Shown: positions 5,840 through 48,531 of the stretch, piece by piece
Numbering within the stretch: the stretch's first letter is position 1
Layout of the letters: each line of letters opens with the position of its first letter
Made by a program: the position numbers and the translations under genes
Assembly: GCA_902767155.1 (NCBI GenBank)
Contig: CACXGC010000118.1
Coordinates: 1 to 49,954 of the forward strand
Length of the DNA stretch: 49,954 nucleotides
Source: an uncultured Ruminococcus sp.
Lineage (GTDB): Bacteria > Bacillota > Clostridia > Oscillospirales > Acutalibacteraceae
Direction: 5' to 3'
Notes under the pieces: generated by a model
What the model was told of the DNA's origin: nothing
Databases searched by the model: none
The model's input: the letters and a program-made list of their open reading frames with translations, nothing else

Positions 5840-6196
5840 TTAATCATCATGGTGTACTGTGATGCCAATATCACTGAATTCTAATTGTCTGATATTTTCA
5901 AGACCTTCCGGTGAAGCTGTTCCCACATTTTCACCCTCACGGCTGATAAAATCAAGACCTGTAACATTTGAATCACCGTCAGAAAATGTATTTTTCTTTC
6001 TAACAAATTCAAGTCCGGTAACACCATGATCTTCACTGTCTGAAATATCATTGCTTAGTTTTCTGATAAAACCAAAGTCAGGCATTTCAGCTATCGGAAC
6101 TTCTTTTTTCTTATTGAAGTCAAGACCTGTTACTCTGATTTCTTCACTGTCATTATTATCCTTTTTTTTAATTTTGTCAAGACCTGTGATTTCCAT
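5840..6196 (-). CDS. hypothetical acidic repeat protein with about five [VI]TGL[DE] motifs
   Basis: 118 aa counted from ATG 6196, with GGAGAG 6 nt upstream; the track ORF starts at 6241. Sequence MEITGLDKIKKK..VTGLDFNKKK..VTGLEFVRKK..VTGLDFISRE..EGLENIRQLE. Sits 48 nt after uvrB and 20 nt before parE. Confidence 0.65.
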   Translation of the reverse strand: MEITGLDKIKKKDNNDSEEIRVTGLDFNKKKEVPIAEMPDFGFIRKLSNDISDSEDHGVTGLEFVRKKNTFSDGDSNVTGLDFISREGENVGTASPEGLENIRQLEFSDIGITVHHDD

Positions 6197-6244
6197 TTTT
6201 TGCTCTCCTTTCAAAATAATGTACAATAATTTGTGCAGCATGAC

Positions 6245-8200
6245 TCATTCCTGTAATTCTTTTATTTTGTCTCTCAGATATGCAGCGTGTTCAAATTCCA
6301 GAAGTTTGGCAGCTGTTTTCATTTCCTTAGTAAGCTGAGTAATAAGTTTTTCTCTTTCCGCCTTGCTCATTTTTGTTTTATTTCTCATCTTCTCATCAGT
6401 TTTTGAAGATATCTCTATTATATCATTAACCCTTTTGGTTATAGTTTTCGGAATGATTCCATGTTCAGCATTATACTCCATTTGTATCTTGCGGCGGCGT
6501 TCTGTCTCACTGATAGCTTTTTCCATTGAATCCGTCACCGAATCGGCATACATTATAACTTTTCCTTCGGCATTTCGTGCTGCTCGTCCTATTGTCTGTA
6601 TCAAAGAGCGATCACTTCTCAGAAATCCTTCTTTATCCGCATCCAAAATGGCGACTAACGAAACTTCCGGAATATCAAGACCTTCACGCAGAAGGTTTAT
6701 ACCGACAAGAACATCAAATTCCCCAAGACGGAGATCTCTGATTATTTCCATTCGCTCAACTGTATCAATATCGTGATGCATATAGCGTACTTTTATTCCC
6801 ATTGTGATAAAATAATCTGTCAGATCCTCAGCCATCTTTTTTGTAAGTGTTGTTACAAGTACACGCTGTTTTTTCTCCACACAGGTATTTATCTCCGATA
6901 TCAGGTCGTCAAGCTGTCCTTCAACCGGACGTACACTTATTTCCGGATCAAGCAAACCTGTAGGGCGTATTACCTGCTCGGCAATGACCGCACTGTTTTT
7001 CAGTTCTAATTCTCCCGGAGTAGCACTAACAAAAACCGCCTGATTTATATGACTATAGAATTCATCAAAATTCAGGGGACGATTATCAAATGCCGACGGC
7101 AGACGAAATCCAAATTCTACGAGATTCTCTTTTCTTCCTCTGTCACCGCCACACATTCCCTTGACCTGCGGAAGCATTACATGAGATTCATCTACAAACA
7201 AAAGATAATCTTCCGGAAAATAATCAAGCAGAGTATAAGGAACTGAACCGGGCTTTCTTCCCGAAAGTACACGAGAATAATTTTCTATGCCGCGACAGAA
7301 ACCTATTTCTGTAAGCATTTCGATATCGTAATTCGTCCTTTCCTGAATACGCTGTGCTTCGATAAGTTTTCCCTTTGACTTGAAAAACTCCACTCTCTCC
7401 TGCATTTCTGCCTCGATTTCCTTTACAGCAATATCAATTTTCTCTTTCGGAACAATATAATGTGATGCCGGATAAATTGCCGCATGACGAAGAACTGCTT
7501 TTACTTCTCCGTTCAGCGGATTGACCTCGCTTATTCTATCTATCTCATCTCCGAAAAATTCCACACGAATTACAGATTCAGACGAATATGCAGGAAATAT
7601 TTCCACCACATCGCCACGTACACGGAATTTATTTCGTGAAAAGTCAACGTCATTCCGGTCATATTGCAATTCTACGAGTTTTTTGAGCAATTCATCACGG
7701 TTTTTTTCCATTCCGGGGCGAAGTGATATAACCATATTGCGGTAATCAATAGGATTTCCTAAAGTATAAATACATGATACGCTTGCAACTATGATAACAT
7801 CGCGGCGTTCCGAAAGTGCGAGTGTTGCGGAATGGCGGAGCTTGTCAATTTCGTCATTGATAGAGCTGTCCTTTTCGATATAAGTATCAGTTGTAGGAAC
7901 ATATGCTTCCGGCTGGTAATAGTCATAGTATGAAACAAAGTATTCCACCGCATTATCCGGAAAGAATGCACGAAATTCCTCACAAAGCTGTGCTGCCAGT
8001 GTTTTATTATGTGCCAAAACAAGAGTTGGACGGTTTAATTCAGCAATAACATTTGCCATAGTAAAAGTTTTTCCTGAACCTGTCACACCGAGCAATGTCT
8101 GTTCCTTGTTGCCTGCATTTATGCTGTCAATTAGCATTTTGATAGCTTTTGGCTGATCTCCTGTAGGCTTATAATCTGATATCAGTTTAAACTTATCCAT
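6245..8200 (-). CDS. uvrB: excinuclease ABC subunit B
   Basis: Motifs [15 protein letters not shown] and VDESH, helicase C motifs, and a C-terminal UVR motif ([15 protein letters not shown]). ATG 8200 (MDKFKL) matches homologue N-termini and has GGTGA 5 nt upstream. The alternative ATG 8212 overlaps the upstream stop (ATGGTGA). Confidence 0.95.
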
Positions 8201-8205
8201 TTCTA

Positions 8206-8910
8206 TCACCATACTTTGAGCATATTTTCCGGCAAACCGTCTTCTGCCAAAACATTTCGCACAAGGTTGTACCAGCTTTTACAGTAATCAAGAATTATTG
8301 CATCACCCGAAATAACATTTTCATGTTTCTTCAATTCGTGGTCAACCTCATTAATAACTACTGTTTCTGTTTGAAACTGCATGTCCTCAAACAGATCTTT
8401 TATCATTTGCGCAAGCCTTCCGGAATTCGATACAGGTTTGTCAAGATAAAATATCGCTCTGCCAATTTTCTGACGGCATAATTCCCTGCCGATTGCTTTA
8501 AGAGCAATTTCTGTTTTATCTACAATGCGGTATGTCCCACGCAATCCTGCAAGATCACGCACACAACCATCCATACAGTCAAAAACCGGACTGCCTGAAT
8601 ACGCAACTTCAAGAGTAATTATTGTATTAAAACCGTCAATATGTACTGTACAGCCATCACTCAAAGAAGAAAGTTCTCTATTTTTGCGCTGTTCCAGCAT
8701 TTCTGAACATGATACACTGCGAACAAGTGCGAGACGCTGACGTTCAGACAAAAGATAGTGATCTCCAACAAAAACAGATGCTGATTTTATCGGATAACCG
8801 TTATCTATCAGATATTTTATATCATTTGCTGCTTTTTTAAGCATAACAACAGAATTATAAGAAAAATTTTTTTCGTCTTCGGGAACATAACCACGTTTTA
8901 CTGTCTTCAT
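8206..8910 (-). CDS. DUF434-like protein with C-terminal NYN/PIN-like putative nuclease domain
   Basis: 234 aa from ATG 8910, with GGTGGGG 6 nt upstream. The N-terminal pattern [30 protein letters not shown] recalls DUF434. The C-terminal half has VHIDGFNTI and VISGDAII, like the DGYN / TSD motifs of YacP/Rae1-type NYN domains. Confidence 0.55.
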
Positions 8911-8952
8911 TTCACGCCCCACCTACAGAATCGTCTGCCATCTCTATAAAAG

Positions 8953-9498
8953 TCATATTTCACCAAAAAAGCTTTCTATGTGATCTCTGAAAATATCATT
9001 CAATGGCATAGTTGAGCCGCTATGTTTTCCATCCGGAACTACTATATATCTCTCATTCTGAAATATTTGCCTTGTAAAATCATGAGTATCTATAAGCTCA
9101 TCCTGTCCGCCGACTATAGTTGAAACAAGCTGACTGTCAACATCTGCTATTCCGGAAAATAAACGGATATACTCAAGAACTCCGTCATCGTTGCGATAGC
9201 CGAGTCTTGGCAAATGCAAAAACGGCATAAGACACGGATTTACAAGAACACACGGACATTCGTTCTTTACACTTATAAGAGCCGCAAAAAATCCACCAAG
9301 ACTCGTTCCTACAACTGCATTGCAAAAATTATTCGTAAACTGGCTGTTTAGCAGCTGCATAACAGTTTCAGGCGAAGTTCTGTCATAATCTATTTGCAGT
9401 GAAATTATATCAAAGTTACACTGCTGCAAAGCTTCATAAGAACTGTTTGCAGCATTTCCATGATATCCATGAATATTGAGTACCTTCAATTGGAACAC
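8953..9498 (-). CDS. YqiA/UPF0227-type alpha/beta hydrolase (esterase)
   Basis: LNIHGYHG near the N-terminus, nucleophile elbow GTSLGG, and DGKHS near the C-terminus. Start is GTG 9498, or TTG 9489, which overlaps the upstream TGA (TTGA). Confidence 0.7.
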   Translation of the reverse strand: MFQLKVLNIHGYHGNAANSSYEALQQCNFDIISLQIDYDRTSPETVMQLLNSQFTNNFCNAVVGTSLGGFFAALISVKNECPCVLVNPCLMPFLHLPRLGYRNDDGVLEYIRLFSGIADVDSQLVSTIVGGQDELIDTHDFTRQIFQNERYIVVPDGKHSGSTMPLNDIFRDHIESFFGEI

Positions 9499-10706
9499 CT
9501 TTCCTTTCTTAAAACCGAGCCTGCCGGAATTTCCGTATCACACGGCAAAATAACTTTCTGCATTGCATGAGGAGCAACTTCTATCTGTTCGCCTTTGTCA
9601 TTCATCATACGCTCAACTGTTATCTCGAACGGAATTCCGCTGGGTGGAAGAACATCGAGCTTGTCTCCTGCAAAAAAGCGGTTTCTCTGAGTAAGATATG
9701 CTGTATTGTCCTTATAATCATCACATACAGCAACCACATCGTAATGTCTGATATATCCGCCGTTATCAGTAACTTGTCCGGGTTCTCCGCCAAAAAAGAA
9801 ACCTGTGCTGTATTCACGATGACTGACTTTTTCCAGTTCTTCTCTTATCCATGGAGAAAGCGGCTGTTTTCCCTCGTTTTCGTAGTACTCGTTGATAGCA
9901 TGACGATATGCGTTAGTTATGACCGATACATAGTAAGCAGATTTTGCCCTGCCTTCAATCTTGAGACTATTAACACCGGCATTTACAAGTTCCGGAATAT
10001 GCTCTATCATGCAAAGGTCACGGGAATTATACAGAAATGTTCCGTTTTCGGCCTCTTCGACTGGAAAATACTGACCTTCTCTGTGTTCCTCGTACAAATG
10101 GTACTTCCACCTGCAAGGCTGAGCACAATCACCTCTGTTTGCATCACGTCCCGTCATATAGCTGGAAATAAGACAGCGTCCCGAAAAAGACACACACATA
10201 GAACCATGCACAAAAGTTTCTATTTCCAGTTCAGAAGGAACTTTCGCTCTTAATGCAGCTATTTCTTCGAGCGGCAGTTCACGTGCAAGCACAACTCTTG
10301 ACGCACCCATTTCATAAAGTACTCTTGCGGTCTGATAATTCACAACACCAGCTTGTGTCGATACATGACGCTGCACTTTAGGTGCATATTTTGCTGCAAG
10401 ACTCATAACTCCGAGGTCAGCAATTATAAAGGCATCAACGCCGCAAGCCTGAACTGTTTCCAAAAATTCCGGCAGCCTTTCAATTTCGTCATTTCTTGGT
10501 AGTGTATTACAGGTAACATGTACAGTAACGCCTTTTGAATGTGCAGCTTCAACAGCTTTTTTCAAATCATCCGGCGAAAAGTTTTTTGATGCGGTTCTCA
10601 TCCCGAATTCAGTACCGGCAAGATAAATAGCATCTGCGCCAAATTTCAAAGCACTGTCAAAACATTCAGGATCACCGGCAGGAGCAAGCAATTCAATCTT
10701 TCTCAT
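9486..10706 (-). CDS. U32 family peptidase
   Basis: MRKIELLAPAGD...GADAIYLAG is a typical U32 N-terminus, followed by a Cys-rich central region. Start set at ATG 10706. The track start at 10820 sits only 5 nt downstream of a -10 element and lacks an SD. Confidence 0.85.
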   Translation of the reverse strand: MRKIELLAPAGDPECFDSALKFGADAIYLAGTEFGMRTASKNFSPDDLKKAVEAAHSKGVTVHVTCNTLPRNDEIERLPEFLETVQACGVDAFIIADLGVMSLAAKYAPKVQRHVSTQAGVVNYQTARVLYEMGASRVVLARELPLEEIAALRAKVPSELEIETFVHGSMCVSFSGRCLISSYMTGRDANRGDCAQPCRWKYHLYEEHREGQYFPVEEAENGTFLYNSRDLCMIEHIPELVNAGVNSLKIEGRAKSAYYVSVITNAYRHAINEYYENEGKQPLSPWIREELEKVSHREYSTGFFFGGEPGQVTDNGGYIRHYDVVAVCDDYKDNTAYLTQRNRFFAGDKLDVLPPSGIPFEITVERMMNDKGEQIEVAPHAMQKVILPCDTEIPAGSVLRKERCSN

Positions 10707-12865: not shown

Positions 12866-14977
12866 TTATTTCACTGCTTTGACAGTAAATGTTTTTGCAA
12901 CTTTTGTACCGGCAGAATCCTTTACAACTACTTTGAGATCATAGTCTGTAGCACTTCCGGGACGCAGTGCTGCTGATTTTGTAGTATATGCCGTACCTAT
13001 AACCACCCAATCGGAATTTTTGCTCTTTTTATAATAAAATGCATATTTATACGGGGATGTTCCTCCTTCGGCAGCACCTTTGAGTACAACTTTTTCTCCA
13101 ACAGTCACAACACTTGTACTGATAGTGGAATTATTGATCAATTCTTTGACAGCCTTGACTGTGAAAGTTTTCGTCGAAGTATTATTGTTGCTGTCTTTTA
13201 CAACAACTTTTACATCATATGTTGTTGCTGTTCCGGGCTTGAAAGCTGCACTTTTTGTTGTGTATGCCGGCTGCATTTCATTCCATTCTGTCTTGCTGCT
13301 CTTTTTGTAATAGAAAGCATACTTATAAGAGCCGCTGCCTCCCGATGCTGAACCTTTCAGAACAACTTTTTCACCGACATTTACTTCTTTCGTACTTATT
13401 GTAGATGTATTTTTTAGTTCTTTTGCAAGAACATCAACAACAAATGTTTTTTCGCTCTTGCTTCCTGCTGAATCAGTAACCGTTACTTTAACGTCATACT
13501 TGACAGCCGCACTGGGCTTAAAAGAAGCCCAATCATCTGTATCTGTGCTTATGGTTTGCCATGTTGAACTTGTACTCTTCTTGTATTGGTAAGTGTACGA
13601 GTACGGAACTTTTCCACCTTCTGCATAACCTTCTATTTCAACAGGCGAACCGGCATAAACTGACTCTGCTGAAATTTCGGAAAGATTTTCAAGCGGCGGC
13701 TGTTGATTTTGTATTTCCGGAAGTTCTTTTATAAACTTCTTTGTTCCTACATTGTTTACATCGTCGGACAAAATAGCATAGAGCTTTCTTCCGTTGATTC
13801 TAAGTCCGTAGAAAGACTTGCCGGAAGTATCTGTATTGCTTGCAATTTTGGTTACAGCCTTTGTAACAGGGTCAAGAGAATAAATTGCAGTCTGGGTATT
13901 ATAATAAAGAAGTCCGTCATATTCCTCAAGTCCTGTAAAAGCTTCTTCGTAGTAGTAACCGTTTCCTACGTACCATTTTTCTTTGATATCCAAAACCGTA
14001 ACGGCAGTGTCTTTTACATAGTTGTACTTGACTATTCTCGCATTATCACAATCTACAGCATATACAGCTGTTTCTCCGTCAACCTTGCAGAATTTCGAGC
14101 TATATGAATGGAACTTATAGTTATCATACGTTGAAGCAGAGGGATAAACTGTTTCGTAAGACGGAGTACCTGTATAGCGTTCCATAATATATGCTTTTCT
14201 TGCGCTGTCACTGAGAAGGAAATTATCATGCTGTATAAGCGTCTGACTGTAACCTGTCGGGTCATCCCATGTAACATCGACGTTATAGTATTTGCCGTTC
14301 AGACATACTTTCAGCCATTCATGGTTGATTGCTTCACAGTCAATTATTTCGCTTTTTATTCCGACCTGTCCGAGAAGATATGCATATACACGTGAATAGT
14401 TCTCACAAAGTCCGTATTTATTGACCATCATTGTATAAGAAGATGTGTTATTTAATTGGTATGTTGCATCAAGAGCCAGTTCGTCATGCAGTAATACAGC
14501 CTTTGAAAAGTCATCATCATATCTTGAAAGTTTGTCGTTTATCTGATTCAGATAATGATCTGCTTCCTCGTAAAACTCTTCGAGCATTGCGTCAGACTCA
14601 TCTTTTTCGATGTCATACTTAGGAAACAGCGAATAAATGTACTTTGTTCCCTGATTGGAATAGTAGTTGTATGACATTCCATTTTTGACATAGAAAAGTT
14701 CCGGATATTTGGCGAGTACTGTATAGTAGATATCTGCCGAGTTGAGCGGAATATTGTACTGGCTTACATCAATTTCTGACTCATGCGCCAAAAGAGCCTC
14801 ACCTATCACCTCTATTACTTCGTCATAACCCTCGTATGAACCTTCACCATAGCTGATGTACGACGGGTCTGACTGTACTGCTGCTGAAGCACTAAACGGC
14901 ATTGAGCCGGCAATTGTCAGCATACCCATAAATAATGCCAATCCGACTGTAAAACCTTTTCGTAACTTTTTGCCCAC
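12866..14977 (-). CDS. secreted transglutaminase-like cysteine protease-fold protein with three C-terminal Y_Y_Y-type Ig-like repeats
   Basis: GTG start with AAGGAGGG 6 nt upstream. Signal peptide MGKKLRKGFTVGLALFMGMLTIAGSMPFSASA. Cys/His/Asp core YGLCENYS...NHEWL...DVTWDD. Three ~92-aa repeats contain YKYAFYYKK. Confidence 0.75.
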   Translation of the reverse strand: MGKKLRKGFTVGLALFMGMLTIAGSMPFSASAAVQSDPSYISYGEGSYEGYDEVIEVIGEALLAHESEIDVSQYNIPLNSADIYYTVLAKYPELFYVKNGMSYNYYSNQGTKYIYSLFPKYDIEKDESDAMLEEFYEEADHYLNQINDKLSRYDDDFSKAVLLHDELALDATYQLNNTSSYTMMVNKYGLCENYSRVYAYLLGQVGIKSEIIDCEAINHEWLKVCLNGKYYNVDVTWDDPTGYSQTLIQHDNFLLSDSARKAYIMERYTGTPSYETVYPSASTYDNYKFHSYSSKFCKVDGETAVYAVDCDNARIVKYNYVKDTAVTVLDIKEKWYVGNGYYYEEAFTGLEEYDGLLYYNTQTAIYSLDPVTKAVTKIASNTDTSGKSFYGLRINGRKLYAILSDDVNNVGTKKFIKELPEIQNQQPPLENLSEISAESVYAGSPVEIEGYAEGGKVPYSYTYQYKKSTSSTWQTISTDTDDWASFKPSAAVKYDVKVTVTDSAGSKSEKTFVVDVLAKELKNTSTISTKEVNVGEKVVLKGSASGGSGSYKYAFYYKKSSKTEWNEMQPAYTTKSAAFKPGTATTYDVKVVVKDSNNNTSTKTFTVKAVKELINNSTISTSVVTVGEKVVLKGAAEGGTSPYKYAFYYKKSKNSDWVVIGTAYTTKSAALRPGSATDYDLKVVVKDSAGTKVAKTFTVKAVK
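12869..13696 (-). repeat. three tandem ~276-nt coding repeats (Ig-like modules)
   Basis: Units at about 12869-13144, 13145-13420 and 13421-13696. Units 2 and 3 are very similar (VGEKVVLKG.A.GG...YKYAFYYKKS...TTKSAA..PG.AT.YD.KVVVKDS). Confidence 0.85.
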
Positions 14978-24574: not shown

Positions 24575-24594
24575 CCGGTATTATAAATATTTTT

Positions 24595-24640
24595 GCCGCA
24601 GTTGGTATTTATTATCATCTGCGGCATTTGAATTTTTTTT
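24595..24640 (+). terminator. rho-independent terminator of htpG
   Basis: Stem GCCGCAG / CTGCGGC (24595-24601 / 24619-24625), then ATTTGAATTTTTTTT. Confidence 0.7.
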
Positions 24641-24649
24641 AAAATGCTA

Positions 24650-24678
24650 TTTTATAATGGTGAAAAGTATGGTATAAT
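24650..24678 (+). promoter_or_regulatory. probable promoter of the MotA/ExbB-like operon
   Basis: Extended -10 TGgTATAAT at 24670-24678, with a second TATAAT at 24653-24658. The -35 is only weak (TTTTAT). Confidence 0.4.
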
Positions 24679-24697
24679 GTAGCAAGAGGTGTGTAAA

Positions 24698-25189
24698 ATG
24701 AGCTTTATGTCAAAACTTGCCGGCAGTATTTTTTCTTCTGACTGGTATATACTTATGTTTGCGGTTTTTACGGTCGCGGCGCTTGTTGTTGTCTTGCTCG
24801 CAAACAGAAGAGTATCGGGTGAGTTTGAAAACTGGAAAAGAGAAATATACTATTCGGTGCTTATTTATCGTGTTCTGACTATCGGATATACGCTTTTTGT
24901 TACTTTTATATCTATTTTTCCCATTCTCGGTATGCTCGGAACAGTAACTGCTTTGCTCGGACTTGACCTTTCCGGAGAATCAGCGGCTGCCAGTGCAAGA
25001 ACCGGTTTTTTCAATGCTTTGACTTCTACAGCATGGGGCATTATTTTTGCAGTGATATTCAAAATAGTGAATGCTGTGATTTCTCAGTCGGTTGAGAATA
25101 ATATTCAGCAGGTCACGGATCTTATAAATCAAAATCGTGAGAATATACGTAAGAAAAAAGGAAAACTGTCTGATCTTATAAAAAGGTGA
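24698..25189 (+). CDS. minimal MotA/TolQ/ExbB-family proton channel protein
   Basis: 163 aa from ATG 24698, with AGAGGTG 6 nt upstream. Three predicted TM segments. Family signature FPILGMLGTVTALLG ... FFNALTSTAWGIIFAVIF. Confidence 0.7.
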   Translation: MSFMSKLAGSIFSSDWYILMFAVFTVAALVVVLLANRRVSGEFENWKREIYYSVLIYRVLTIGYTLFVTFISIFPILGMLGTVTALLGLDLSGESAAASARTGFFNALTSTAWGIIFAVIFKIVNAVISQSVENNIQQVTDLINQNRENIRKKKGKLSDLIKR

Positions 25190-25193
25190 TGAA

Positions 25194-25769
25194 ATGAAAG
25201 TAAGGGAAGTTATTCTGGATTTTACATCCTTGCTTGATATTATCATGATAATACTTTTCTTTTTCATACTGTTCAGCAATCTTGATGCAGAAACTGCTGT
25301 CGAAAAATCTGAGGAAATACAGGAACAATACAGCAGTATGATTGAAGAGGCTGAGAGTGAGCAAAGCAAATGGCGTGAGGAAGCTGCGGCTGAATGGGAA
25401 AGAATTGAAAGAACTGACAAGAATGCTGTGATAAATCAGCAGGCACTTATAGATTTCGACAAGGGCTCTATGATTTCCATGAATTTGCAGCAGATAAATT
25501 CCGGAGAAGATTTTGTTATCAGTATTACGAACAATAATAAGAAAGTTTCGGATGTATCTTTCAGATCGGAAACGAGTATAACAGAGGATATCCTCAAAGC
25601 ATTGAAATTATGTGGTCTGAAAACGGATAATGTGACTATAGGCGTTCTTACATATGACGGTTATGCTTATGGTACAGAAAAAGCTGTGCCAATGATAGAA
25701 GATGCTGTCAAGGATATTCAGAAAGAGTACATGAATTTTTATTTTACCACCATAAATATTTCAAAGTGA
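25194..25769 (+). CDS. ExbD/TolR-like membrane-anchored protein
   Basis: 191 aa. AAAGGTGA SD overlaps the upstream stop. N-terminal helix ILDFTSLLDIIMIILFFFILF carries an Asp, as in ExbD/TolR. It is followed by an E/K-rich helix and a C-terminal alpha/beta-like domain. Confidence 0.6.
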   Translation: MKVREVILDFTSLLDIIMIILFFFILFSNLDAETAVEKSEEIQEQYSSMIEEAESEQSKWREEAAAEWERIERTDKNAVINQQALIDFDKGSMISMNLQQINSGEDFVISITNNNKKVSDVSFRSETSITEDILKALKLCGLKTDNVTIGVLTYDGYAYGTEKAVPMIEDAVKDIQKEYMNFYFTTINISK

Positions 25770-25779
25770 GGGAAATGTT

Positions 25780-26238
25780 ATGAAAAAAATCATAGGTGTT
25801 ATTGTAGTTATTTTTACAGTTGTTGTCGCAGGCTTTTTCCTTTTGGGAGGCTGTGAGGGATTTGGTCTTGGAGGCGGAAAAGGTGACGGAGACGGAAATA
25901 ATAAAACGGAAACTCCTTCACAGACAGTGAGCAGTAAATTGGAAGAAAATTCTGATGTTTCGACAGAGGTTAGCAGCAAAGAATCAGTTGTTTCTGAGGA
26001 AGAGTCCGAGCAGAGTGAGCCTAAAAAAGTGGAAATAACCGTATCGGGAAGAGATTATCTCTATCAGAATAATAAGATCACGCTGGACGATTTTATGAAA
26101 GAATTGGAGAAGTATGAAAAAGATACCGAGATTGTTATAACTTCCGATAATACAGCAGCTAAAAATACTATGGATGACCTTACAGACAAGCTTGACAGTG
26201 CAGGATATAAGAATTATCATAAATCCGCTGTTGAATGA
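25780..26238 (+). CDS. predicted lipoprotein with ExbD/TolR-like C-terminal domain
   Basis: 152 aa with GAGGGAA SD. Signal and lipobox MKKIIGVIVVIFTVVVAGFFLLGGC, then a G/D/S/E-rich linker. C-terminal sequence KKVEITVSGRDYLYQNNKITLDDFMKELEKYEKDTEIVITSDNTAAKNTMDDLTDKLDSAGY. Confidence 0.55.
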   Translation: MKKIIGVIVVIFTVVVAGFFLLGGCEGFGLGGGKGDGDGNNKTETPSQTVSSKLEENSDVSTEVSSKESVVSEEESEQSEPKKVEITVSGRDYLYQNNKITLDDFMKELEKYEKDTEIVITSDNTAAKNTMDDLTDKLDSAGYKNYHKSAVE

Positions 26239-26260
26239 TACAAATATGTGAAAGATGAAA

Positions 26261-26306
26261 AATCAGCAATTGTTGAATTTTGTTTCATACAATTGCTGAT
26301 TTTTTG
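26261..26306. terminator. bidirectional rho-independent terminator
   Basis: 12-bp stem AATCAGCAATTG / CAATTGCTGATT with T-rich tracts on both strands. Lies between convergent genes. Confidence 0.75.
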
Positions 26307-26331
26307 TTTACTGATATTTCATATTTTCGGT

Positions 26332-30048: not shown

Positions 30049-30831
30049 ATAGCTGCTGTTGCAACAATAATCGGAAATGCTGCCGGAATGTCTATCACTT
30101 ATTTTCTATCTCACAATAAAACTATACTCAAACCGCATATGAAATATTTGCTGCCTACAAAAGAAATACTGAAAGAAATCTACTGGGTTGGTATTCCGGC
30201 ATCTTTAGAAACATTTCTCACGTCGGTTGCATTCATTGTAAACAATAATCTTGCTGTAAGCTATGGCGAACTAACAGTAGCTTCTATGGGAATCTCTCAG
30301 AAAATAATGTCTCTCGGCAGTTATGTATATCAAGGATTTGCTGCCGGAACTCAGCCAATAATGGGCTATAATTACGGCTCAAAAAATTTCTCACGTATGC
30401 TTGATGTTCTTAAAGCAGGCGTATTTGTCGTCACAGGAACCGAAATTGCACTTATGCTTGTATACGGTATCTTTGCTCCTCAATTCATCGGAATTTTTAC
30501 CGATTCATCTGAAGTTATTGAAATCGGTACAAAAGTACTAAGAACTCTTATGTTCATACTGCCATTTGTCGGCACTGTATCAATGTGTCGTATGGCTTTT
30601 CAGGCAATAGGAAAACCACAGTATGCTTTTAGTATTACTCTTGTGCGTCAGTTGTTCTTATATGTGCCGCTGTTAATTTTGTTCAACAATATTTTCTCGT
30701 TCGGCGGTATGCTCTGGGCTCAGCCTGTAACGGAATTTATTATGATGATATCATCTTTAGCATTGCTTTATCATGTTATCAAAACGGAAGAACGTAAACA
30801 GCTGCACTATACCGCTAACCAACAAACTTAA
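30049..30831 (+). pseudogene. 5'-truncated MATE family efflux transporter (C-terminal half only)
   Basis: The frame opens at 30049 (IAAVATIIGNAAGMSITYF...). The sequence matches the second six-TM lobe of MATE transporters (VGIPASLE..., GISQKIMSL, GTQPIMGYNYG). The N-terminal lobe is absent and there is no SD before ATG 30088. Confidence 0.7.
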
Positions 30832-39821: not shown

Positions 39822-42800
39822 TTAATTCAACCTTTTGGCTGTTGAATTTGAATCATCAAAAATAACATCACTGCTCAGACTATGCTTTGCAAAATACAAT
39901 GCTTTAAGACCTGATGAATAAAGTTCTTCATACGAACGTCCGCCGGAAGGATAAATACTTATTCCAACTTTTCCGAAAATAGCAACATTACCTTCATGTG
40001 CTTCGTAACTATTGCTTATTACTGATATTATCTGATTAGCCTTTTCCTGAAGTGTTGTGTGAGCACTCAGACCCTTCACGAATATTACAAACTGTGCCCC
40101 GCTTATTCGTCCTATTATATCAGAATCACGGAATAATTCCTTTACATTTGATGCTGTTTCCTTCAAAACCGCATTTGCAAAGTTCTTTCCCAGCGACTTT
40201 TCCAAAACCTCAAAATTGCACACTTCGGCAACTATAAGTGCATGTGAACCGGAAGCTCCCTCTTCGTAAAGATAATTTTTTATCTTATTCTCAGTTGCAT
40301 TACGGTTATACAGATTTGTTATAAAATCTGTTCTGTCTTTTCTTGCCTCTTCCTCATCCATGTTAGAACTGTCTCTTGAAACATCTGCACAAACCGCTAT
40401 TATTTTTGCCGGAACGCCTGCCGCATTGCGGACTGTGACAAAATGAACCCTGTTCCACACATATTCGTCTTTCTTCATATTATAGATACGAACAAGACAC
40501 TCCGCATCTGTTCCGTCAGAACGTGAGAAGTTCATTTTTTCAAGGAATTTATTTACATCATCCGAATGTATCAAAGATGTGGACTTTATATTTTTCACAA
40601 AGTCATACATTGCCGGTGTATATCCGTACATTTTCTCAAAAGACCCCGAAAACTTTGCGCTGTCAAGTCTTGGAATCCACTCAAGAATAAACGATTTTGT
40701 CTGCTCAAGAATTTCATCATATATTTTATCGTTCAAAACAAGCGCCGTACTCTGATAATCAAATATCGGCAATTCCGTCTTTGTACTGTTTGCAATGATA
40801 TTTTCACGGAATGTTTCTATATCAATAATCTCGTTGGAATGAATGCCGAAAACAACATCCGTCTTAACTTTAAGCTGATGTATAACTTCCTCGTCCGCAT
40901 TCATAGGCATATAGCAAGTTGCACCCAATCTGTTGAAACAGTCAAGAAGATATACAAGTATTTCTATAGGAATCAGATCATCTCTTATCTCGTCAATAAA
41001 ATCATTCGCAAAGGTGATTCTTTCAAAAAGTTTGTTGGTGAAGCATTTTGTATTAATGCTGTCTATACCGACGTTGTACACACCGACCTCGAAACCTAAC
41101 TTTTTAAGAAAATCCGTAAATTCCGTAACCTGGCGCATATCCATTTCCTTAATCATATCCTGAGTAACATTCAAACATATATTTTCACAATCCACAGGAT
41201 AATAAACAAGTATTTCGTCAATCGCCTTCATTACGATTTCACTGTCAAAACCTTTGAACATTGTAGCAATAGACAGCTTAGGCAATGCAAGATGCTCTTG
41301 TTCAAGTGCATATATAACCGAAAAAATTCTCCTCAAGCTGTTCAGACTGAATGCTGTAATATTTTCCGTATGGTAAAGTGCCGCATAGATTTCATCAAAA
41401 TCAAATCTTTTGCCAAACTCTGCGGAACTTTCTACCATTTCATAAGAAACTACTTTTTCATTAATAGAATCCATGAGCGGAGCAAAGAAACTTTCAAAAT
41501 TTATTACCTTCTGACTATTCTCGCTCAGTTCCTGCTTTTCATAGGGTTTTATTTCCCAACTGGTACGCATATTTTCATTGTAGAAAAGATACATATTCTT
41601 TCCGTTTACTTTAGCTACGTCAACCGCTTTTGAAGCATTAAGGAAAAGATCTTCAAATTTTGAGCCGGTTTCGGGATAGTTTGAAACACCTATGCAAGCA
41701 GATATTTCCGGATATGTGATATTGTCGAATGTGTATGTCTTGTGTAAACTGCGGAATATTGTATCTACAATTGTAAAACTTTCCTCTTTGTTAGGAGTAT
41801 CTTTAACAAATACTATAAAATTATCATCTTCCACACGTCCGACAATGTTTCTGTCATTAAATTGATTTTTCAGAATATTTGCAATATCTTTAAGTATATC
41901 ATTGCCGAAACGATAACCCGTTTTGCGGTTAATAGTACGAAAACCGTCAACGTCAATAAGCATTAGCATATGTTTTCCGCTTTTTCCCGTATGGGTAAGA
42001 TAATCATCAATTTCATTGCGAAGACCATTAAAATTCAAAAGTCCTGTTATGCTATCTCTGTTTGCTCCAAGTTCATCTTCGCCGTCTCTCACTGAGTTAT
42101 ATGTCAGGCGCTGTATGCTAAGAAACAGATCAACAATAGTATCTTTTTCCACCACGGGAACAACAGTCAGTCTTACGGCTGAATAGATATTTCCATCAAG
42201 TCTCATCGGACATTCTATAACAGTCCTGTTAAGATCTTTTTTCACATCACTGTAGATATTATCGACACGCAGTGTGCGTGACACTTTGCTGTGAAATTCG
42301 TCCGGACAAAGTTCTGTAAACAGCATGACCGCTTCTGAATAATTCTTAGGCGTATATGAAAAAATGGAACTAAATTTGCCTTTTCTTTCCTCAGCGATAT
42401 CTTTTTCAAGATTAAATTCAAACACAAAGTCGGAAACCTTGTTCAATATCTCACTGTCACGTCTTTTGGTTTCCTGAATTTCAAGTTTCTGATCTTCTAT
42501 AGTTTTGATAAGCTCATCACGACCCATTTTCTTATACAGATCGTTTGCTGTATCCTGTACATTATCAGAAAGTTTGCGTTCACTGCCGTCATTGACAGAA
42601 TGATCCACATGATTTATATCAGCATATTCCTCTGCCAATGATTTAAATTCAGAAAGAACCTCTCCAAAGCAATCCATCATTTCATCAGAAAATGCCCCGC
42701 AAGCTCCTGTTCTTATCATTTCGACAGCCTGATCGTGTGTAAACGCTGCTTTATACGGACGTTCACTTGTCAAAGCATCATAGCAGTCCGCAATAGAAAC

Positions 42801-43706
42801 AACCTGCGCCCATATAGGTATCTGATTACCTACAAGCCCGTCCGGATAGCCTTTACCATCAAATTTCTCGTGATGATAGCGGCATATGTCATAGCAATAT
42901 GTGAAATATTCATTTCTCTCTACTGAATCAAGTTGATTAAGCAAATCGCAGCCTTTTAAAGTATGCTCTTTCATTATCTTGAATTCATCATACGTTAATC
43001 TTCTTGGACTGAGCAAAATAGAATCCGGTATTGCTATTTTTCCTATATCATGCAGGGCCGATGCGGATGATATAAGGTTTATCCTTTCCTCCGTCATATT
43101 ATATTTTGGATATTTTACTGCCAGCACCCTGAGCATTACTTCCGTGAATTTTTTAATACGATGTATATGTCTGCCAGATTCAACATCACGGTATTCTATT
43201 ACTGTACTGAGCGTATCAAGCATATCGTTATTAATAGTATTAATTTTCCTTTGCTGAATTTTCAGAGCTTTATTTTGAGAAAGTATCTTAGCTGTTTGTC
43301 TTTCCACAAGCTCTTCCAATTCATTTTTGTGCGAATACAATTCCACAAGATTTGCGACACGTTTCATTATCACGTGTGGATTTACCGGAGAAGCAATAAC
43401 ATCGCTGTAAGGCATTTCCATATTAAGGTGCTTTACTCTGTGATCGGTATCACCATTCAAAAGCAGTATTATTGGTATATTTTCAAATATCTTGAGATTC
43501 GCAAGTGTTTGGACAGTTTCTTTGCTCATTTTTTCCGCAATACTCTCATTTACCAATACAATAGAAATACTTGTTTTGTACTGCATGATAAAGCGAAATA
43601 CCAATTCTGCACTATCTGTTTCTACAATTTCATATTGTGAAGAAAACATCTCGTGTATGATTGATTTATTCATTTCTATATTATCTGCTACGAGCATTTT
43701 TTTCAT
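39822..43706 (-). CDS. multidomain c-di-GMP signalling protein: pseudo-receiver, HD-GYP, degenerate GGDEF, degenerate EAL, degenerate GGDEF
   Basis: 1294 aa. REC-like N-terminus with Asn where the phospho-Asp is expected (IVLVNESI). Intact HD-GYP motifs (HDIGKIAIP, HHEKFDGKGYPDGL). GGDEF-type folds with VEDDNF and ISGAQF at the active-site position. EAL-like fold with EMV / LNVTQ / YNVGID in place of the canonical motifs. Confidence 0.8.
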   Translation of the reverse strand: MKKMLVADNIEMNKSIIHEMFSSQYEIVETDSAELVFRFIMQYKTSISIVLVNESIAEKMSKETVQTLANLKIFENIPIILLLNGDTDHRVKHLNMEMPYSDVIASPVNPHVIMKRVANLVELYSHKNELEELVERQTAKILSQNKALKIQQRKINTINNDMLDTLSTVIEYRDVESGRHIHRIKKFTEVMLRVLAVKYPKYNMTEERINLISSASALHDIGKIAIPDSILLSPRRLTYDEFKIMKEHTLKGCDLLNQLDSVERNEYFTYCYDICRYHHEKFDGKGYPDGLVGNQIPIWAQVVSIADCYDALTSERPYKAAFTHDQAVEMIRTGACGAFSDEMMDCFGEVLSEFKSLAEEYADINHVDHSVNDGSERKLSDNVQDTANDLYKKMGRDELIKTIEDQKLEIQETKRRDSEILNKVSDFVFEFNLEKDIAEERKGKFSSIFSYTPKNYSEAVMLFTELCPDEFHSKVSRTLRVDNIYSDVKKDLNRTVIECPMRLDGNIYSAVRLTVVPVVEKDTIVDLFLSIQRLTYNSVRDGEDELGANRDSITGLLNFNGLRNEIDDYLTHTGKSGKHMLMLIDVDGFRTINRKTGYRFGNDILKDIANILKNQFNDRNIVGRVEDDNFIVFVKDTPNKEESFTIVDTIFRSLHKTYTFDNITYPEISACIGVSNYPETGSKFEDLFLNASKAVDVAKVNGKNMYLFYNENMRTSWEIKPYEKQELSENSQKVINFESFFAPLMDSINEKVVSYEMVESSAEFGKRFDFDEIYAALYHTENITAFSLNSLRRIFSVIYALEQEHLALPKLSIATMFKGFDSEIVMKAIDEILVYYPVDCENICLNVTQDMIKEMDMRQVTEFTDFLKKLGFEVGVYNVGIDSINTKCFTNKLFERITFANDFIDEIRDDLIPIEILVYLLDCFNRLGATCYMPMNADEEVIHQLKVKTDVVFGIHSNEIIDIETFRENIIANSTKTELPIFDYQSTALVLNDKIYDEILEQTKSFILEWIPRLDSAKFSGSFEKMYGYTPAMYDFVKNIKSTSLIHSDDVNKFLEKMNFSRSDGTDAECLVRIYNMKKDEYVWNRVHFVTVRNAAGVPAKIIAVCADVSRDSSNMDEEEARKDRTDFITNLYNRNATENKIKNYLYEEGASGSHALIVAEVCNFEVLEKSLGKNFANAVLKETASNVKELFRDSDIIGRISGAQFVIFVKGLSAHTTLQEKANQIISVISNSYEAHEGNVAIFGKVGISIYPSGGRSYEELYSSGLKALYFAKHSLSSDVIFDDSNSTAKRLN

Positions 43707-45243: not shown

Positions 45244-48200
45244 TTATACCGATAATTTTCTTAATAAAACAGAAATTATCATAAGCACAAGACAACAGAA
45301 CAATGTATATATCAAAACCGGAATATTGCTCAAAAGAATGAATCCTGAACCGAAAGACAGTACCATTACAAGCAAAAATCCTATAATGACCGAAAGCGAC
45401 TGTATAACTATCGAAATAGTTATAGTTGATTTCAATGCTATACATCCTGAAACTGCTGCGGCAAATGCACTCAGCTTTCCGTTGGTTACCATATATGCAC
45501 GAGATGTCTTCTCCGTACCGGATATTTCTTCCTGACAGATTGTTCCCAGACCTGTAGGAAGTATTTTTATACTGCGCTGATACAGATTAAACTTCTCTGC
45601 AACGTGTTCCTGTGTAACATTTTGATCTATGGTTCTGATAATGATATTTACTCCATGACTGGATAGTTCACGCAATGACTCGGCGATTTCATTATCTACC
45701 CTATATGTCAGACTGAACATAACTACAAGTTCACCCGCTAATGAAATATAGACAAGTTCGTTTTTCATCTTTCTGTATCTTGTTTCAATTGATTCATCGG
45801 GAATTTTGATATTATGTTTCTGCATAAGTTTACGGTTGCCCATCAGTATCCTGTTGCCGCCTATCCATCCCGTAAGTCCAAGTCCGTCATCGTAAGATAC
45901 ACTGTCAACTTTAGGAACCATATATTTTCTATCCTGAATTATAGTTTCAAAAATATGTGTCATAGGTCCGTCAACTGCATACGATACTGCTGCTGCATAA
46001 CGAAATGCATCTTTCAATTTACTCTGGTCAAACGGGCGCATACCGCTAAGAAAAATATTTCCTTTCGGATAAATCTGTGATGAATCTATCATGATCGCAT
46101 TTGTATCACTGAATTGTCTTACGGCATCGTAACCTGATATCATAGCGCCCTTATTCAAAATCAAATTGCAAAGGTTCTTCAGCGGCAAATTTATTGCAAG
46201 CAAACAACATATTGGTATTGTAATAAATGATGTAAGTGAAAATGTTGAAACACCGCCGATAAAATCTTTTGTAGTAATACCATAAAAGAAACTGTACAGT
46301 ACACAAAGCGCTACTGTAAACGGTGCGGAAAATGATGCATTATCCTCCACAGGATCAGGAGCGTAGGAAAGCTGCAAAAAGTTGCTCATGAATTTTGATT
46401 GTTTTGTATACGCAACAATTGGTCTCTGTACTGGAAGTCCGGAAACCATTCTTTCAGCATTATTTGATTTGGTGTATATTTTTCCAACAAACTTTGCTGA
46501 CTTGCTGCGCAGAAAACGAAAATTATCAGCTGTTCTCTTAACAATAACAAGCTTTCCCAAACAATTAAACAACAATGCAAGAATTATTGGAAGTGTGTAC
46601 AAGTTATACGTTCCGTCAAGATAAATATTCGGCAAGAACAATGCAGTAATAGACTGTATTACACCGGCTAATGATGCGGTAGCAATTGCTGTATCACTGT
46701 TACCTCTCAAATGGAACAAAGCAACAAACCCGTTTGTTATATAATCTCTTGCGACGAAAACGGACACGGCCATAACAATGAAATTGATTATGCCATAAAC
46801 CAGCCAACCATTGTGTATCATATTGAGAAAAAGAGATGGCATCAACTCCGCTAAAAATACAGTACAAAGTGCTATTACTGTTGTTACTGTAAGTATTATC
46901 GTTTTGATAAAAACTTTGCTGAAACTTTCGTTTATCTCATTTTTTATATCAGATTCGTCTTCTTTGCTATTATAATCATTCAATTCGGTTTTTTCTTCGA
47001 TAAAATCTTCCTCAAAATCAAATTTGTTTTCTTCTACAGCAAAAAGATCCTTTATTTTCAAACCAAGCTTTTTCTTTTCCTTGGCAACTTTTGGTTTTTT
47101 ATCTTTTCCCAAAATGTCTTTTGATTGTTCATCAGCTTCAAAAGCAACAGATTCCTCTTTTTTATTTTCCGAAACATTCTTTCCAACTGTCTCTTTTGAC
47201 TCTGTGGTTGATTTTTCAGGTAGTTTTACTGTAACGTCCGATATTGGCGGAACTGAATTTTTTTCGGCATCTGCATATTTTCTTGCTTTTTCATATTCCG
47301 TTCTTACTGTTTTTGTAAACTTTCCTGCCATAACGACAAACGGCGTACTGTCACTGTAATGATACACCATTGCCGACCTTTTTACTTCGGAAAAATTTGT
47401 ATTAGGAATTTTGGGAGTACTTTCATGTTTTTTCTCCTCATTAACAGACACTGTTTTTTCAGTATCATGAGAAAGTTCATTCTTTCCGGTAGGCACAGCA
47501 AATTTATTTTCTGCCGCGTTATTAATCTGAGAATATGATTTATCTTCTGCAACATCGTGTGACAGTTCGTTATTTATATTCCTCGCTTGAACGGTAGTGT
47601 TGCCTATTGGTACATCATGTGATAATTCATTTATAGCCGGCTGTTTGGGAACTACAGGATTACTTTCAAACATATCATGTGATAACTCATCATTTTCTTT
47701 AACTGTATCATCCTTTGCTGACTCGTTATTTTTACCAACAGATACAGTACTATTTTCTTCGCTATTAACCGTTTCATTTTCCTTTACAAGTCTGTCACTG
47801 CTATCTGAAAAATCTTTCACTGTGGAAACAGAAACGGTAACAGGCTTTTTTTGTTTTGCGGATTCTTTTACCTGAAAAACTGTATCCACTGAAATTTCCA
47901 TTTTTCCGGAATTATTTTTTTGTCCAGACTGTTTGTTTTTATTTTCCTGAATTTTCTCATTTTTCTTTTCCCGTCCCGTTTGCACAGGAGCTCTTTGTGA
48001 AGAAACAAATTCTTTTCCTGCCTCAAAATAATCTTGCTGATTCTCCGACCTGTAGACAGGATATTCTTCAATAGCTTTTTCATTTTGCTGAGCAACGTAA
48101 GTTATGTCATTTTCCTCATCATCAGACGAAGCAGAAAATAAAACCGTCTCTGTTTCCTCAAATGCTTCCTGCTCTTCATTATTTTTTACTCGAGCAGGCT

Positions 48201-48513
48201 CATCATACATATTTATCGGTGCAGGCTTTTCATTTGAAAAAATATCATTAAAGTCGTCTGTTTCATCAGAAAAAGTCATACTGTCTTCCGGCTGAGTTAC
48301 AATATCTGCAAGTTTTGAAAACAACTCTTTACATTTTTTCATAAACGGTGATATATCTTTTTTTCCATCAGTGTCTTTCCCGTTATTTTCTTGAAAGTCG
48401 TTTTCTTCCCCATTTTCCGCATGATACGTTTGATGATCTTTTTCATTTTTATGAAATAGTCCTCGGATAGGTGAAATATCCTGCTTACTTGAAACCTTAT
48501 GATTTTCATCCAT
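45244..48513 (-). CDS. membrane protein with a degenerate P1B-type ATPase-like C-terminal half and a long low-complexity N-terminal extension
   Basis: ATG 48513 (MDENHK) with GGAGGG 10 nt upstream. About 540 aa of E/K/N/S-rich sequence carry 4 x ELSHD. They are followed by TM helices and P-type ATPase-like blocks: PICC in place of CPC, IDSSQI in place of DKTGT, TIDQN in place of TGDN, and TNGKLS in place of GDGxND. Confidence 0.75.
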   Translation of the reverse strand: MDENHKVSSKQDISPIRGLFHKNEKDHQTYHAENGEENDFQENNGKDTDGKKDISPFMKKCKELFSKLADIVTQPEDSMTFSDETDDFNDIFSNEKPAPINMYDEPARVKNNEEQEAFEETETVLFSASSDDEENDITYVAQQNEKAIEEYPVYRSENQQDYFEAGKEFVSSQRAPVQTGREKKNEKIQENKNKQSGQKNNSGKMEISVDTVFQVKESAKQKKPVTVSVSTVKDFSDSSDRLVKENETVNSEENSTVSVGKNNESAKDDTVKENDELSHDMFESNPVVPKQPAINELSHDVPIGNTTVQARNINNELSHDVAEDKSYSQINNAAENKFAVPTGKNELSHDTEKTVSVNEEKKHESTPKIPNTNFSEVKRSAMVYHYSDSTPFVVMAGKFTKTVRTEYEKARKYADAEKNSVPPISDVTVKLPEKSTTESKETVGKNVSENKKEESVAFEADEQSKDILGKDKKPKVAKEKKKLGLKIKDLFAVEENKFDFEEDFIEEKTELNDYNSKEDESDIKNEINESFSKVFIKTIILTVTTVIALCTVFLAELMPSLFLNMIHNGWLVYGIINFIVMAVSVFVARDYITNGFVALFHLRGNSDTAIATASLAGVIQSITALFLPNIYLDGTYNLYTLPIILALLFNCLGKLVIVKRTADNFRFLRSKSAKFVGKIYTKSNNAERMVSGLPVQRPIVAYTKQSKFMSNFLQLSYAPDPVEDNASFSAPFTVALCVLYSFFYGITTKDFIGGVSTFSLTSFITIPICCLLAINLPLKNLCNLILNKGAMISGYDAVRQFSDTNAIMIDSSQIYPKGNIFLSGMRPFDQSKLKDAFRYAAAVSYAVDGPMTHIFETIIQDRKYMVPKVDSVSYDDGLGLTGWIGGNRILMGNRKLMQKHNIKIPDESIETRYRKMKNELVYISLAGELVVMFSLTYRVDNEIAESLRELSSHGVNIIIRTIDQNVTQEHVAEKFNLYQRSIKILPTGLGTICQEEISGTEKTSRAYMVTNGKLSAFAAAVSGCIALKSTITISIVIQSLSVIIGFLLVMVLSFGSGFILLSNIPVLIYTLFCCLVLMIISVLLRKLSV

Positions 48514-48531
48514 ATTCCAACAACCCTCCAA

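Follow-up and report, generated by a model that had tools for sequence, protein, structure and literature searches.

The locus and its signals

The stretch of DNA considered here (49,954 nt of contig CACXGC010000118.1, assembly GCA_902767155.1, from an uncultured Ruminococcus sp.; the whole stretch is called the window) carries on its forward strand, between htpG and icd, three small genes designated g1, g2 and g3, the products of which may together form a minimal ion-driven motor of the MotAB/ExbBD/TolQR superfamily. The open reading frame (ORF) of g1 extends from 24698 to 25189 (163 aa, counted from the ATG), that of g2 from 25194 to 25769 (191 aa; the predicted bitopic, B-type subunit), and that of g3 from 25780 to 26238 (152 aa), which makes 506 residues in all. 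The gaps between them are 4 nt (g1/g2) and 10 nt (g2/g3), and each gene is preceded by a purine-rich Shine-Dalgarno sequence; the ORF listing and the raw sequence agree on this compact arrangement, which had been described in a first-pass annotation made from the sequence. An alternative GTG start of g1 at 24689 overlaps the Shine-Dalgarno sequence AGAGGTG (24685–24691), and g1 homologs begin with MSF or MNF at the position equivalent to the ATG at 24698, which is the likely start. Public assemblies encoding the identical protein have the same three gene calls of 163, 191, and 152 aa.

The claim that the unit is insulated from its neighbors was borne out by RNA folding and a promoter scan. Upstream lies the predicted intrinsic terminator of htpG (24594–24641, forward strand), a hairpin at 24594–24626 followed by a U-run, with a folding energy of −20.9 kcal/mol (z −4.5) that was reached by none of 200 shuffled sequences. 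It is followed by a putative sigma-A-type promoter (24651–24678, forward strand), in which a −35 element TTTATA (24651–24656) and a 16-nt spacer precede the extended −10 element TGGTATAAT (24670–24678); it matches the consensus at 10 of 12 positions and has a TG before the −10 hexamer. Most of the approximately 20 homologous loci inspected have a promoter of the form TTGCA-N17-TGnTATAAT 15–30 nt ahead of the Shine-Dalgarno sequence. Downstream, at 26253–26309, a predicted bidirectional intrinsic terminator acting on both strands would be common to the triad and the convergent icd; its stem is flanked by an A-run and a U-run, and it folds with −27.1 kcal/mol on the forward and −21.8 kcal/mol on the reverse strand (z −6.3 and −6.5, respectively). 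Because they are rich in A and T, both terminator hairpins were missed by a simple terminator scan. No riboswitch or other RNA family was found by Rfam in the whole window.

g1, a minimal MotA/TolQ/ExbB subunit

The product of g1 matches PF01618 (MotA_ExbB) over residues 63–139 with 35.0 bits (E 1.4e-8; gathering cutoff 22.9), and every g1 homolog listed carries the same domain. Hydropathy predicts three membrane helices, at residues ~17–35, 59–77, and 105–128; from the distribution of Lys and Arg, the positive-inside rule places both the first loop (23 residues, five of them Lys or Arg) and the basic tail (33 residues, eight Lys or Arg) in the cytoplasm. As predicted, this is the topology of ExbB and TolQ with the cytoplasmic domain almost deleted. 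When a profile built from 36 family members was searched against the PDB, its positions 63–122 aligned to TolQ 122–186 and positions 72–135 to ExbB 134–202, coordinates from which it follows that g1 lacks about 60 residues ahead of transmembrane helix 2 (TM2). The earlier description of g1 as a three-helix protein with the superfamily signature that lacks the large cytoplasmic domain therefore stands.

Within the superfamily g1 cannot be placed close to any one member. The best PDB match of the profile is MotA (8gqy, E 0.008), followed by ExbB, TolQ, and PomA with E-values of 0.1–0.3; none of the NCBIfam subfamily models comes near its cutoff for g1, the match to ZorA_2 having an E-value of 0.02 and 14 bits where 100 are required. 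As it is about equally distant from MotA, ExbB, TolQ, and PomA, g1 represents a separate branch of the superfamily and not an ortholog of ExbB or TolQ.

Conservation in the family alignment is concentrated in two signatures, FPILGMLGTVTALLG in TM2 (residues 74–88, including Pro75 and Thr82; 24917–24961, forward strand) and FFNALTSTAWGIIFAVIFK in TM3 (residues 104–122, including Thr111; 25007–25063, forward strand). F74, P75, G78, G81, T82, and V83 of the former are invariant in alignment A3 and identical in at least 95% of 70 homologs; F104, A107, L108, T111, G114, and K122 of the latter are conserved to at least 95% (alignment A3; 70 homologs). By alignment coordinates, T82 corresponds to TolQ 145 and ExbB 148, and T111 lies within one residue of TolQ 178 and ExbB 181, which are the threonines that TolQ and ExbB require for function. 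Small as it is, g1 keeps in TM2 and TM3 the Pro/Gly/Thr signature that lines the channel.

g2, an Asp-bearing helix with stalk and head

The predicted membrane helix of g2 (residues 8–28; 25215–25277, forward strand) contains Asp15 (GAT at 25236–25238) and is the part of the protein that is matched by PF02472, the ExbD/TolR family: profile positions 8–36 align with residues 8–36 at 20.5 bits (gathering cutoff 25.4). The family as a whole is matched more securely; all 32 aligned members hit PF02472 via this helix at E≤0.01 (best 1.3e-7), and some relatives of g2, as of g3, pass the gathering threshold. The motif L-D-F-T-S-L-L-D is nearly invariant among homologs; in a comparison of 73 homologs at the species level, T11, L13, L14, and D15 each proved to be ≥95% identical, and D15 is invariant in alignment A1. 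By alignment of the motif, D15 is the equivalent of ExbD Asp25 and TolR Asp23. The proposal that gene 2 starts with an ExbD/TolR-type helix carrying the protonatable Asp is in good agreement with these results.

Following the helix, an extracytoplasmic helical stalk (residues 29–89; 25278–25460, forward strand) is predicted from the AlphaFold2 model and alignment A1; in the model (mean predicted local distance difference test, pLDDT, of 82) one long helix, comprising residues 3–76 plus 78–89, extends from the membrane to residue 89. The stalk is acidic (7 Lys/Arg vs. 18 Asp/Glu), and its sequence and length vary, with insertions and deletions in alignment A1; toward its end there is a conserved motif, EW.RI...D.NA..NQQAL. 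The stalk leads to a modeled head (residues 94–188; 25473–25757, forward strand; pLDDT 82–90) with the element order beta-beta-beta-alpha-beta-alpha-beta. With Foldseek, the g2 model found only weak, generic RNase-H-like or uS11 matches with a template-modeling score (TM-score) of about 0.4, to which no functional meaning is attached, and ExbD was absent from its top 50 matches. When the g2 and g3 families were compared profile against profile, no significant similarity emerged, whether whole or with the C-terminal domains alone (65–77 sequences each; probability ≤17%). The order of secondary structure elements in the head is that of the ExbD domain, and the models of g2 and g3 both list matches to uS11 and RNase H; for these two reasons the head may be a much-diverged ExbD domain.

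The extent of the family was determined in an exhaustive profile search of 1.84 billion representatives (clusters at 50% identity, E≤1e-3). It comprises 386 clusters, and nearly all of the 150 listed are 180–220 aa long and match end to end. The family is narrow and uniform, its profile not reaching to the far larger canonical ExbD/TolR families; a query with the 45 N-terminal residues of g2 gave chance matches alone in the PDB. Judged from its sequence, g2 resembles ExbD in the membrane helix only. One homolog bears the JGI name “cell division protein FtsL”, which was set aside because Pfam gave no match to FtsL or DivIC.

g3, a tethered ExbD-type domain

The N-terminal 25 residues of g3 (25780–25854, forward strand; hydropathy peak at residues 4–22) form a predicted hydrophobic anchor that ends with LLGGC, a possible lipobox in which Cys25 follows a hydrophobic stretch of 21 residues. 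The closest relatives retain LLGGC, and about half of the close relatives have the Cys, but a lipobox-like motif is present in only 7 of 77 homologs, the remainder carrying a simple membrane anchor; lipidation is thus not a feature of the g3 family, and the lipoprotein call plausibly holds for this clade only. What the family has in common is a tether at the N-terminus; as the sequence of this anchor is not conserved, a place inside the motor is improbable. g3 has no counterpart of the Asp residue in the g2 helix.

The anchor is followed by a Gly-rich juxtamembrane stretch and an acidic, Ser-rich linker modeled as disordered (residues 26–82; 25855–26025, forward strand), of which residues 27–80 have a pLDDT below 50; its charge is 5 Lys/Arg vs. 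14 Asp/Glu, and among g3 homologs the linker, with 47 aa as its median length, is net acidic. The Gly-rich stretch, of the GFGxGGG type and situated right after the anchor (residues 26–40; 25855–25900), recurs in 56 of 76 g3 homologs. A match of the g3 profile to TatA in the PDB (E 0.013) stems from the anchor and this stretch; being weak, non-significant, and driven by composition, it was dismissed.

The C-terminal part (residues 83–150; 26026–26229, forward strand) is modeled with a pLDDT above 90 as a globular domain of the ExbD/TolR type. Its top Foldseek matches are the periplasmic domain of E. coli ExbD in 8p9r and 8vgd, with target-normalized TM-scores of 0.79–0.81, a root-mean-square deviation of 1.9 Å, and 25% sequence identity; TolR (5by4) is next in the list. 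Sequence profiles point the same way: residues 71–146 align to positions 47–121 of PF02472 with 21.1 bits (gathering cutoff 25.4), 14 of 16 relatives match this family (best 3.6e-7), and g3 matches TIGR02804 with an E-value of 1.8e-5. In the model, then, g3 consists of a flexible tether that bears a globular domain of the ExbD type, so that from the earlier proposal of a lipoprotein with an ExbD-like C-terminal domain, the domain (TM-score ~0.8 to ExbD) is upheld and the lipoprotein nature is not, as far as the family is concerned.

Distribution and conservation

In a scan of one genome per species, a relative of g2 was found in 184 species, and the best 80 loci were examined. They belong mostly to Ruminococcus (including at least seven cultured strains of R. 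flavefaciens), Oscillospiraceae, and metagenome-assembled genomes (MAGs) of unclassified Clostridia; a few are in MAGs labeled Lachnospiraceae. The order g1-g2-g3 is kept in 70–73 of the 80 loci, where adjacent genes overlap or stand apart by a few bases, and a few loci carry two g3 paralogs. One MAG labeled Alistipes sp. (Bacteroidota; L072) has a full g1-g2-g3-g3 module, all other carriers being Clostridia; a binning error is suspected, mis-binning or horizontal transfer being the possible causes. In an abundant human-gut species (L001–L005, positions 6001–9735), of which the g1 homolog is found on more than 700 contigs, the module consists of four genes of 152, 193, 180, and 145 aa and is followed by genes for DUF1294 and EcsC; one of its two g3 paralogs is membrane-anchored, the other has a classical lipobox.

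The lineage of R. flavefaciens is Bacillota, Clostridia, Oscillospiraceae, and the Oscillospiraceae/Ruminococcus lineage is monoderm. In addition, the window encodes FtsK, HtpG, isocitrate dehydrogenase, aconitase, AddAB, and MecA, of which AddAB and MecA are typical of Firmicutes. Both the carriers and the window are thus in line with the earlier view of the host as a monoderm, and not as a Negativicutes-like diderm.

Selection on the triad was assessed against a relative at 70–89% protein identity, at which synonymous sites are saturated (proportion of synonymous differences, pS, of 0.71–0.80). The proportion of nonsynonymous differences (pN) is 0.06 for g1, 0.15 for g2, and 0.18 for g3, which corresponds to pN/pS ratios of 0.09, 0.18, and 0.24, respectively; icd and acn have ratios of 0.04–0.05. 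Such values at saturated synonymous sites indicate functional rather than decaying genes. The triad is passed on as a single unit, and purifying selection acts on all of its genes.

Genomic neighborhood

The order htpG-triad-icd-acn is common to the window and to contigs of rumen-type Ruminococcus. When the neighborhoods were clustered (1343 ORFs from 85 loci), the commonest neighbor beyond the triad itself, present in 18 loci, reflected synteny within the R. flavefaciens clade; such clade-syntenic neighbors are all housekeeping genes, for example those for peptidase U32, an MltG-like protein, and ThyX. The triad is the sole conserved unit in the 80 genome loci, which means that the survey of homologous triads yielded a conserved gene order and no further conserved neighbor. 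The observation that TonB, TolA/Pal, a MotB with an OmpA domain, ZorCD, and flagellar genes are missing from the window was confirmed, and it could be extended: within ±8 kb in the 80 loci there is no conserved TonB, Tol-Pal, OmpA-type, Zorya, or flagellar partner. Neither TonB nor TonB-dependent receptors are encoded in the window, and tolA, tolB, pal, and cpoB are not adjacent to the triad; around it the window has htpG, icd, and acn, and the other loci have unrelated housekeeping genes. No OmpA-family match was obtained in g2 or g3. PADLOC assigned neither g1 nor g3 to a defense-system family and gave no Zor match, with a JetC match of g2 at chance level only; no relatives of g2 were found in viral contigs.

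Two minor associations were seen. A DUF1294 gene follows the module in two species only (one of them represented by L067). Only in rabbit-gut MAGs, namely four related ones of Clostridia (L043, L044, L046, and L047), is a secreted protein of 330–376 aa with a conserved N-terminal region, …SAASPK(L/I)NKS…, encoded just 3′ of g3 on the same strand.

Relation to known systems

ExbB-ExbD is one of the systems close to the triad. g1 belongs to PF01618, has the same three-helix topology, and keeps both channel threonines, g2 begins with a helix that contains a conserved Asp, and the g3 domain superposes on the periplasmic domain of ExbD; the gene order A-B-B′ is that of ExbB-ExbD1-ExbD2. The differences are these: g1 is short by about 60 cytoplasmic residues, and its profile matches ExbB no better than it does MotA or TolQ; in g2, about 60 residues make up a helical stalk, and the head has no detectable sequence similarity to ExbD; and g3 has no Asp helix and is merely tethered. 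Unlike in Ton systems, there is no TonB or TonB-dependent receptor nearby and the host has no outer membrane. To TolQ-TolR the triad is related by superfamily and topology, TolR (5by4) being among the structural matches of g3; as for Tol, expression is apparently of the housekeeping type, as read from the promoter sequence, and the location is in the chromosomal core. It differs from Tol-Pal by the lack of TolA, TolB, Pal, and CpoB, by a smaller A subunit, and by the host having no outer membrane to be tethered.

MotAB and PomAB are of the same superfamily, provide the best PDB match of the g1 profile (MotA, 8gqy), share with the triad the Pro and Thr conserved in the A subunit's last two helices as well as the Asp of the B helix, and likewise occur in monoderm Firmicutes. 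However, MotA has four helices and a large cytoplasmic torque interface, as opposed to three helices and a loop of 23 aa in g1, and MotB contains a plug together with a peptidoglycan-binding domain like that of OmpA, neither of which is present in g2 or g3; flagellar genes are not found nearby. Zorya is characterized by a long cytoplasmic tail of ZorA, a peptidoglycan-binding domain of ZorB, and linked ZorC/D, none of which is matched by the triad. With GldL-GldM the triad shares a small A subunit and a bitopic B subunit whose long shaft outside the cytoplasm would take work outward, but no relation in sequence to GldL or GldM was detected; with four periplasmic domains, GldM is a protein of Bacteroidota only (PMC9389320).

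The class into which the triad would fall is that of the “generic ion transporters” (GIT), a heterogeneous group of non-flagellar systems, many of unknown function (PMC12505986); as in the triad, their cytoplasmic domains are condensed and their B subunits have no plug. The cytoplasmic domain of g1 is apparently shorter than those of the two- and three-helix types of that study, the main text of which contains no description that we could find of the triad, of the split-ExbD arrangement, or of the distribution in Oscillospiraceae (PMC12505986). Although it resembles ExbBD and TolQR, the triad appears from its gene content and sequences to be neither a Ton or Tol system nor a flagellar stator nor a Zorya system.

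A proposed motor for a monoderm cell

The triad contains, in conserved form, every sequence element by which the ion path of ExbBD, TolQR, and MotAB is defined. We favor, with a probability of roughly 60%, the reading that the triad is a self-contained motor of this superfamily, driven by the ion motive force and fitted to a cell without an outer membrane. By analogy to the known members, five g1 subunits would surround two g2 helices (5:2), and protonation and deprotonation of Asp15 in g2 would cause a relative rotation or a power stroke. Work would be delivered on the outer face via the stalk of g2 (~60 helical residues, ~9 nm) and its head, the outer face being proposed because g1 has no cytoplasmic domain with which to engage a partner. 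The g3 domain may be an adaptor that pairs with the ectodomain of g2 or captures either a strand of a partner protein or the wall; precedents for such a role would be the dealings of ExbD and TolR with TonB, TolA, and peptidoglycan, 8p9r and 8vgd being ExbD-TonB complexes. As g2 and g3 together cover both halves of the PF02472 profile, duplication of an ExbD gene followed by sub-functionalization would be the simplest origin, g2 having kept the ion-binding helix and g3 the periplasmic domain. The target of the motor would be encoded elsewhere than at the triad locus.

As to the task, we have a weak preference for a constitutive one at the envelope or wall (similar to maintenance by Tol) over regulated nutrient uptake, because the promoters look constitutive, the location is in the chromosomal core, and no receptors or regulators are linked. 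A more specific version can be put forward only tentatively, as we would sooner doubt than accept it: that this is the first non-flagellar 5:2-superfamily motor of a monoderm envelope, in which ExbD is split into an Asp-bearing coiled-coil axle and a tethered domain and the work is done on the wall or the surface layer. If true, Ruminococcus and related Clostridia of the gut and rumen would have a force-transduction task, exerted on their thick wall or surface layer, that is undescribed in Gram-positives.

Several points weigh against a motor. Profile searches gave a mixed result in that g1 exceeds the PF01618 cutoff and the window's own g2 and g3 both stay under the gathering threshold of PF02472, though their families match it consistently; nor did a PDB sequence search with the g2 and g3 profiles retrieve any ExbD or TolR chain. 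g1 matches MotA, ExbB, and TolQ only weakly (E 0.008–0.3), and the head of g2 is without a family match, given the weak Foldseek results and the absence of profile similarity to the g3 domain. Expression of the housekeeping type is suggested by promoter sequence only, and the output step is conjecture since no partner or target was identified.

An alternative is a non-motor function, in which a proton-conducting or gated complex would sense the state of the membrane or the wall, as in stress signaling or control of ion leakage. The lack of a cytoplasmic interaction domain in g1, its divergence from every solved motor subunit, and the failure to find an output partner would all be compatible with this. 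The conserved residues are, however, those of a motor channel, the stalk and head of g2 and the tethered ExbD domain of g3, all extracytoplasmic, would be costly to keep and of no use to a simple channel, and neither Pfam nor NCBIfam revealed a signaling domain, which is why we regard this explanation as unlikely. Somewhat harder to accept is an energizer of uptake resembling Ton, in which the motor would pull on wall or surface binding proteins or on a gated conduit and g3 would take the role of TonB. ExbB-ExbD-ExbD triads are typical of Ton systems, and in structure g3 comes closest to ExbD in complex with TonB; yet the neighborhoods of the 80 loci contain no conserved TonB-like Pro-rich protein, receptor, or ABC transporter, the upstream region contains no riboswitch or recognizable operator and the promoters look constitutive, and the anchor of g3 is neither conserved nor endowed with a TonB-type helix motif.

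A further alternative is a non-functional Ton or Tol remnant from a diderm ancestor. Two recent surveys take the Ton components of monoderms to be probably non-functional, one of them calling the occasional Ton systems found there “likely non-functional” (PMC12204202), and the lack of partners near the triad would fit such a vestige; in conflict with it are the purifying selection on all three genes (pN/pS 0.09–0.24), the invariance of catalytic-type residues across at least 70 species, and the conservation of gene order, translational signals, and strong promoters, so that decay is very improbable. Least probable of all is an anti-phage module like Zorya or a stator for flagellar or gliding motility. 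Both ZorAB and MotAB are superfamily members, and g1 has the faint match to ZorA_2, but PADLOC was negative (the JetC match of g2 being at chance level), the family is absent from viral contigs, the locus is a syntenic core between htpG and icd and not an island, neither ZorC/D nor an OmpA-type peptidoglycan-binding domain nor flagellar genes are present, and g1, with its three helices, has no torque-generating cytoplasmic domain.

Significance

Apart from the flagellar stators, motors of this superfamily are understood to carry energy from the inner membrane to the outer membrane of diderms or to a surface apparatus. Finding the target of the triad would show what job a proton-driven motor has in a cell without an outer membrane. 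With 506 residues, the triad is small enough for structural work, and g1 is close to the minimum for an ion path. Conservation of the triad under selection extends over about 180 species, which are abundant degraders of fiber and starch in the rumen and the gut.

For Gram-positives with a thick wall, a review from 2022 stated that whether and how orthologs of Ton-type proteins work “remains to be tested” and that their ExbB-like genes seem to lack ExbD (PMC9389320). The triad indicates that an ExbD-type partner is present, only below the gathering threshold of Pfam and in some copies named “hypothetical protein”; other names given in public databases are “MotA/TolQ/ExbB proton channel family protein” and “biopolymer transporter ExbD”. 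In agreement with the first-pass annotation, which took the function of the triad to be uncharacterized, our literature searches found no paper on it and no published functional account. In sum, the first-pass observation is confirmed and its interpretation supported with refinements: the triad is probably a minimal, stand-alone motor module of monoderm Oscillospiraceae with a split ExbD, and not a new principle.

Other features of the window

Outside the triad, four reading frames deserve mention. On the reverse strand, an ORF of 1095 aa (45244–48531) has no Pfam family at E≤1e-5; its neighbors are a gene for a SpoU-type methyltransferase and one for ribulose-phosphate 3-epimerase. Another on the same strand (12866–14977; 703 aa) has a C-terminal, sub-threshold FN3-like match as its sole Pfam match. 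An ORF of 247 aa on the forward strand (30088–30831) contains one MatE domain (profile positions 1–158); as it has only some half of the normal length and stops immediately ahead of the convergent addA, it is possibly a truncated efflux gene. Finally, at 39822–43706 on the reverse strand, a cyclic-di-GMP protein of 1294 aa with an HD domain of the HD-GYP type and GGDEF, EAL, and PAS domains is encoded.

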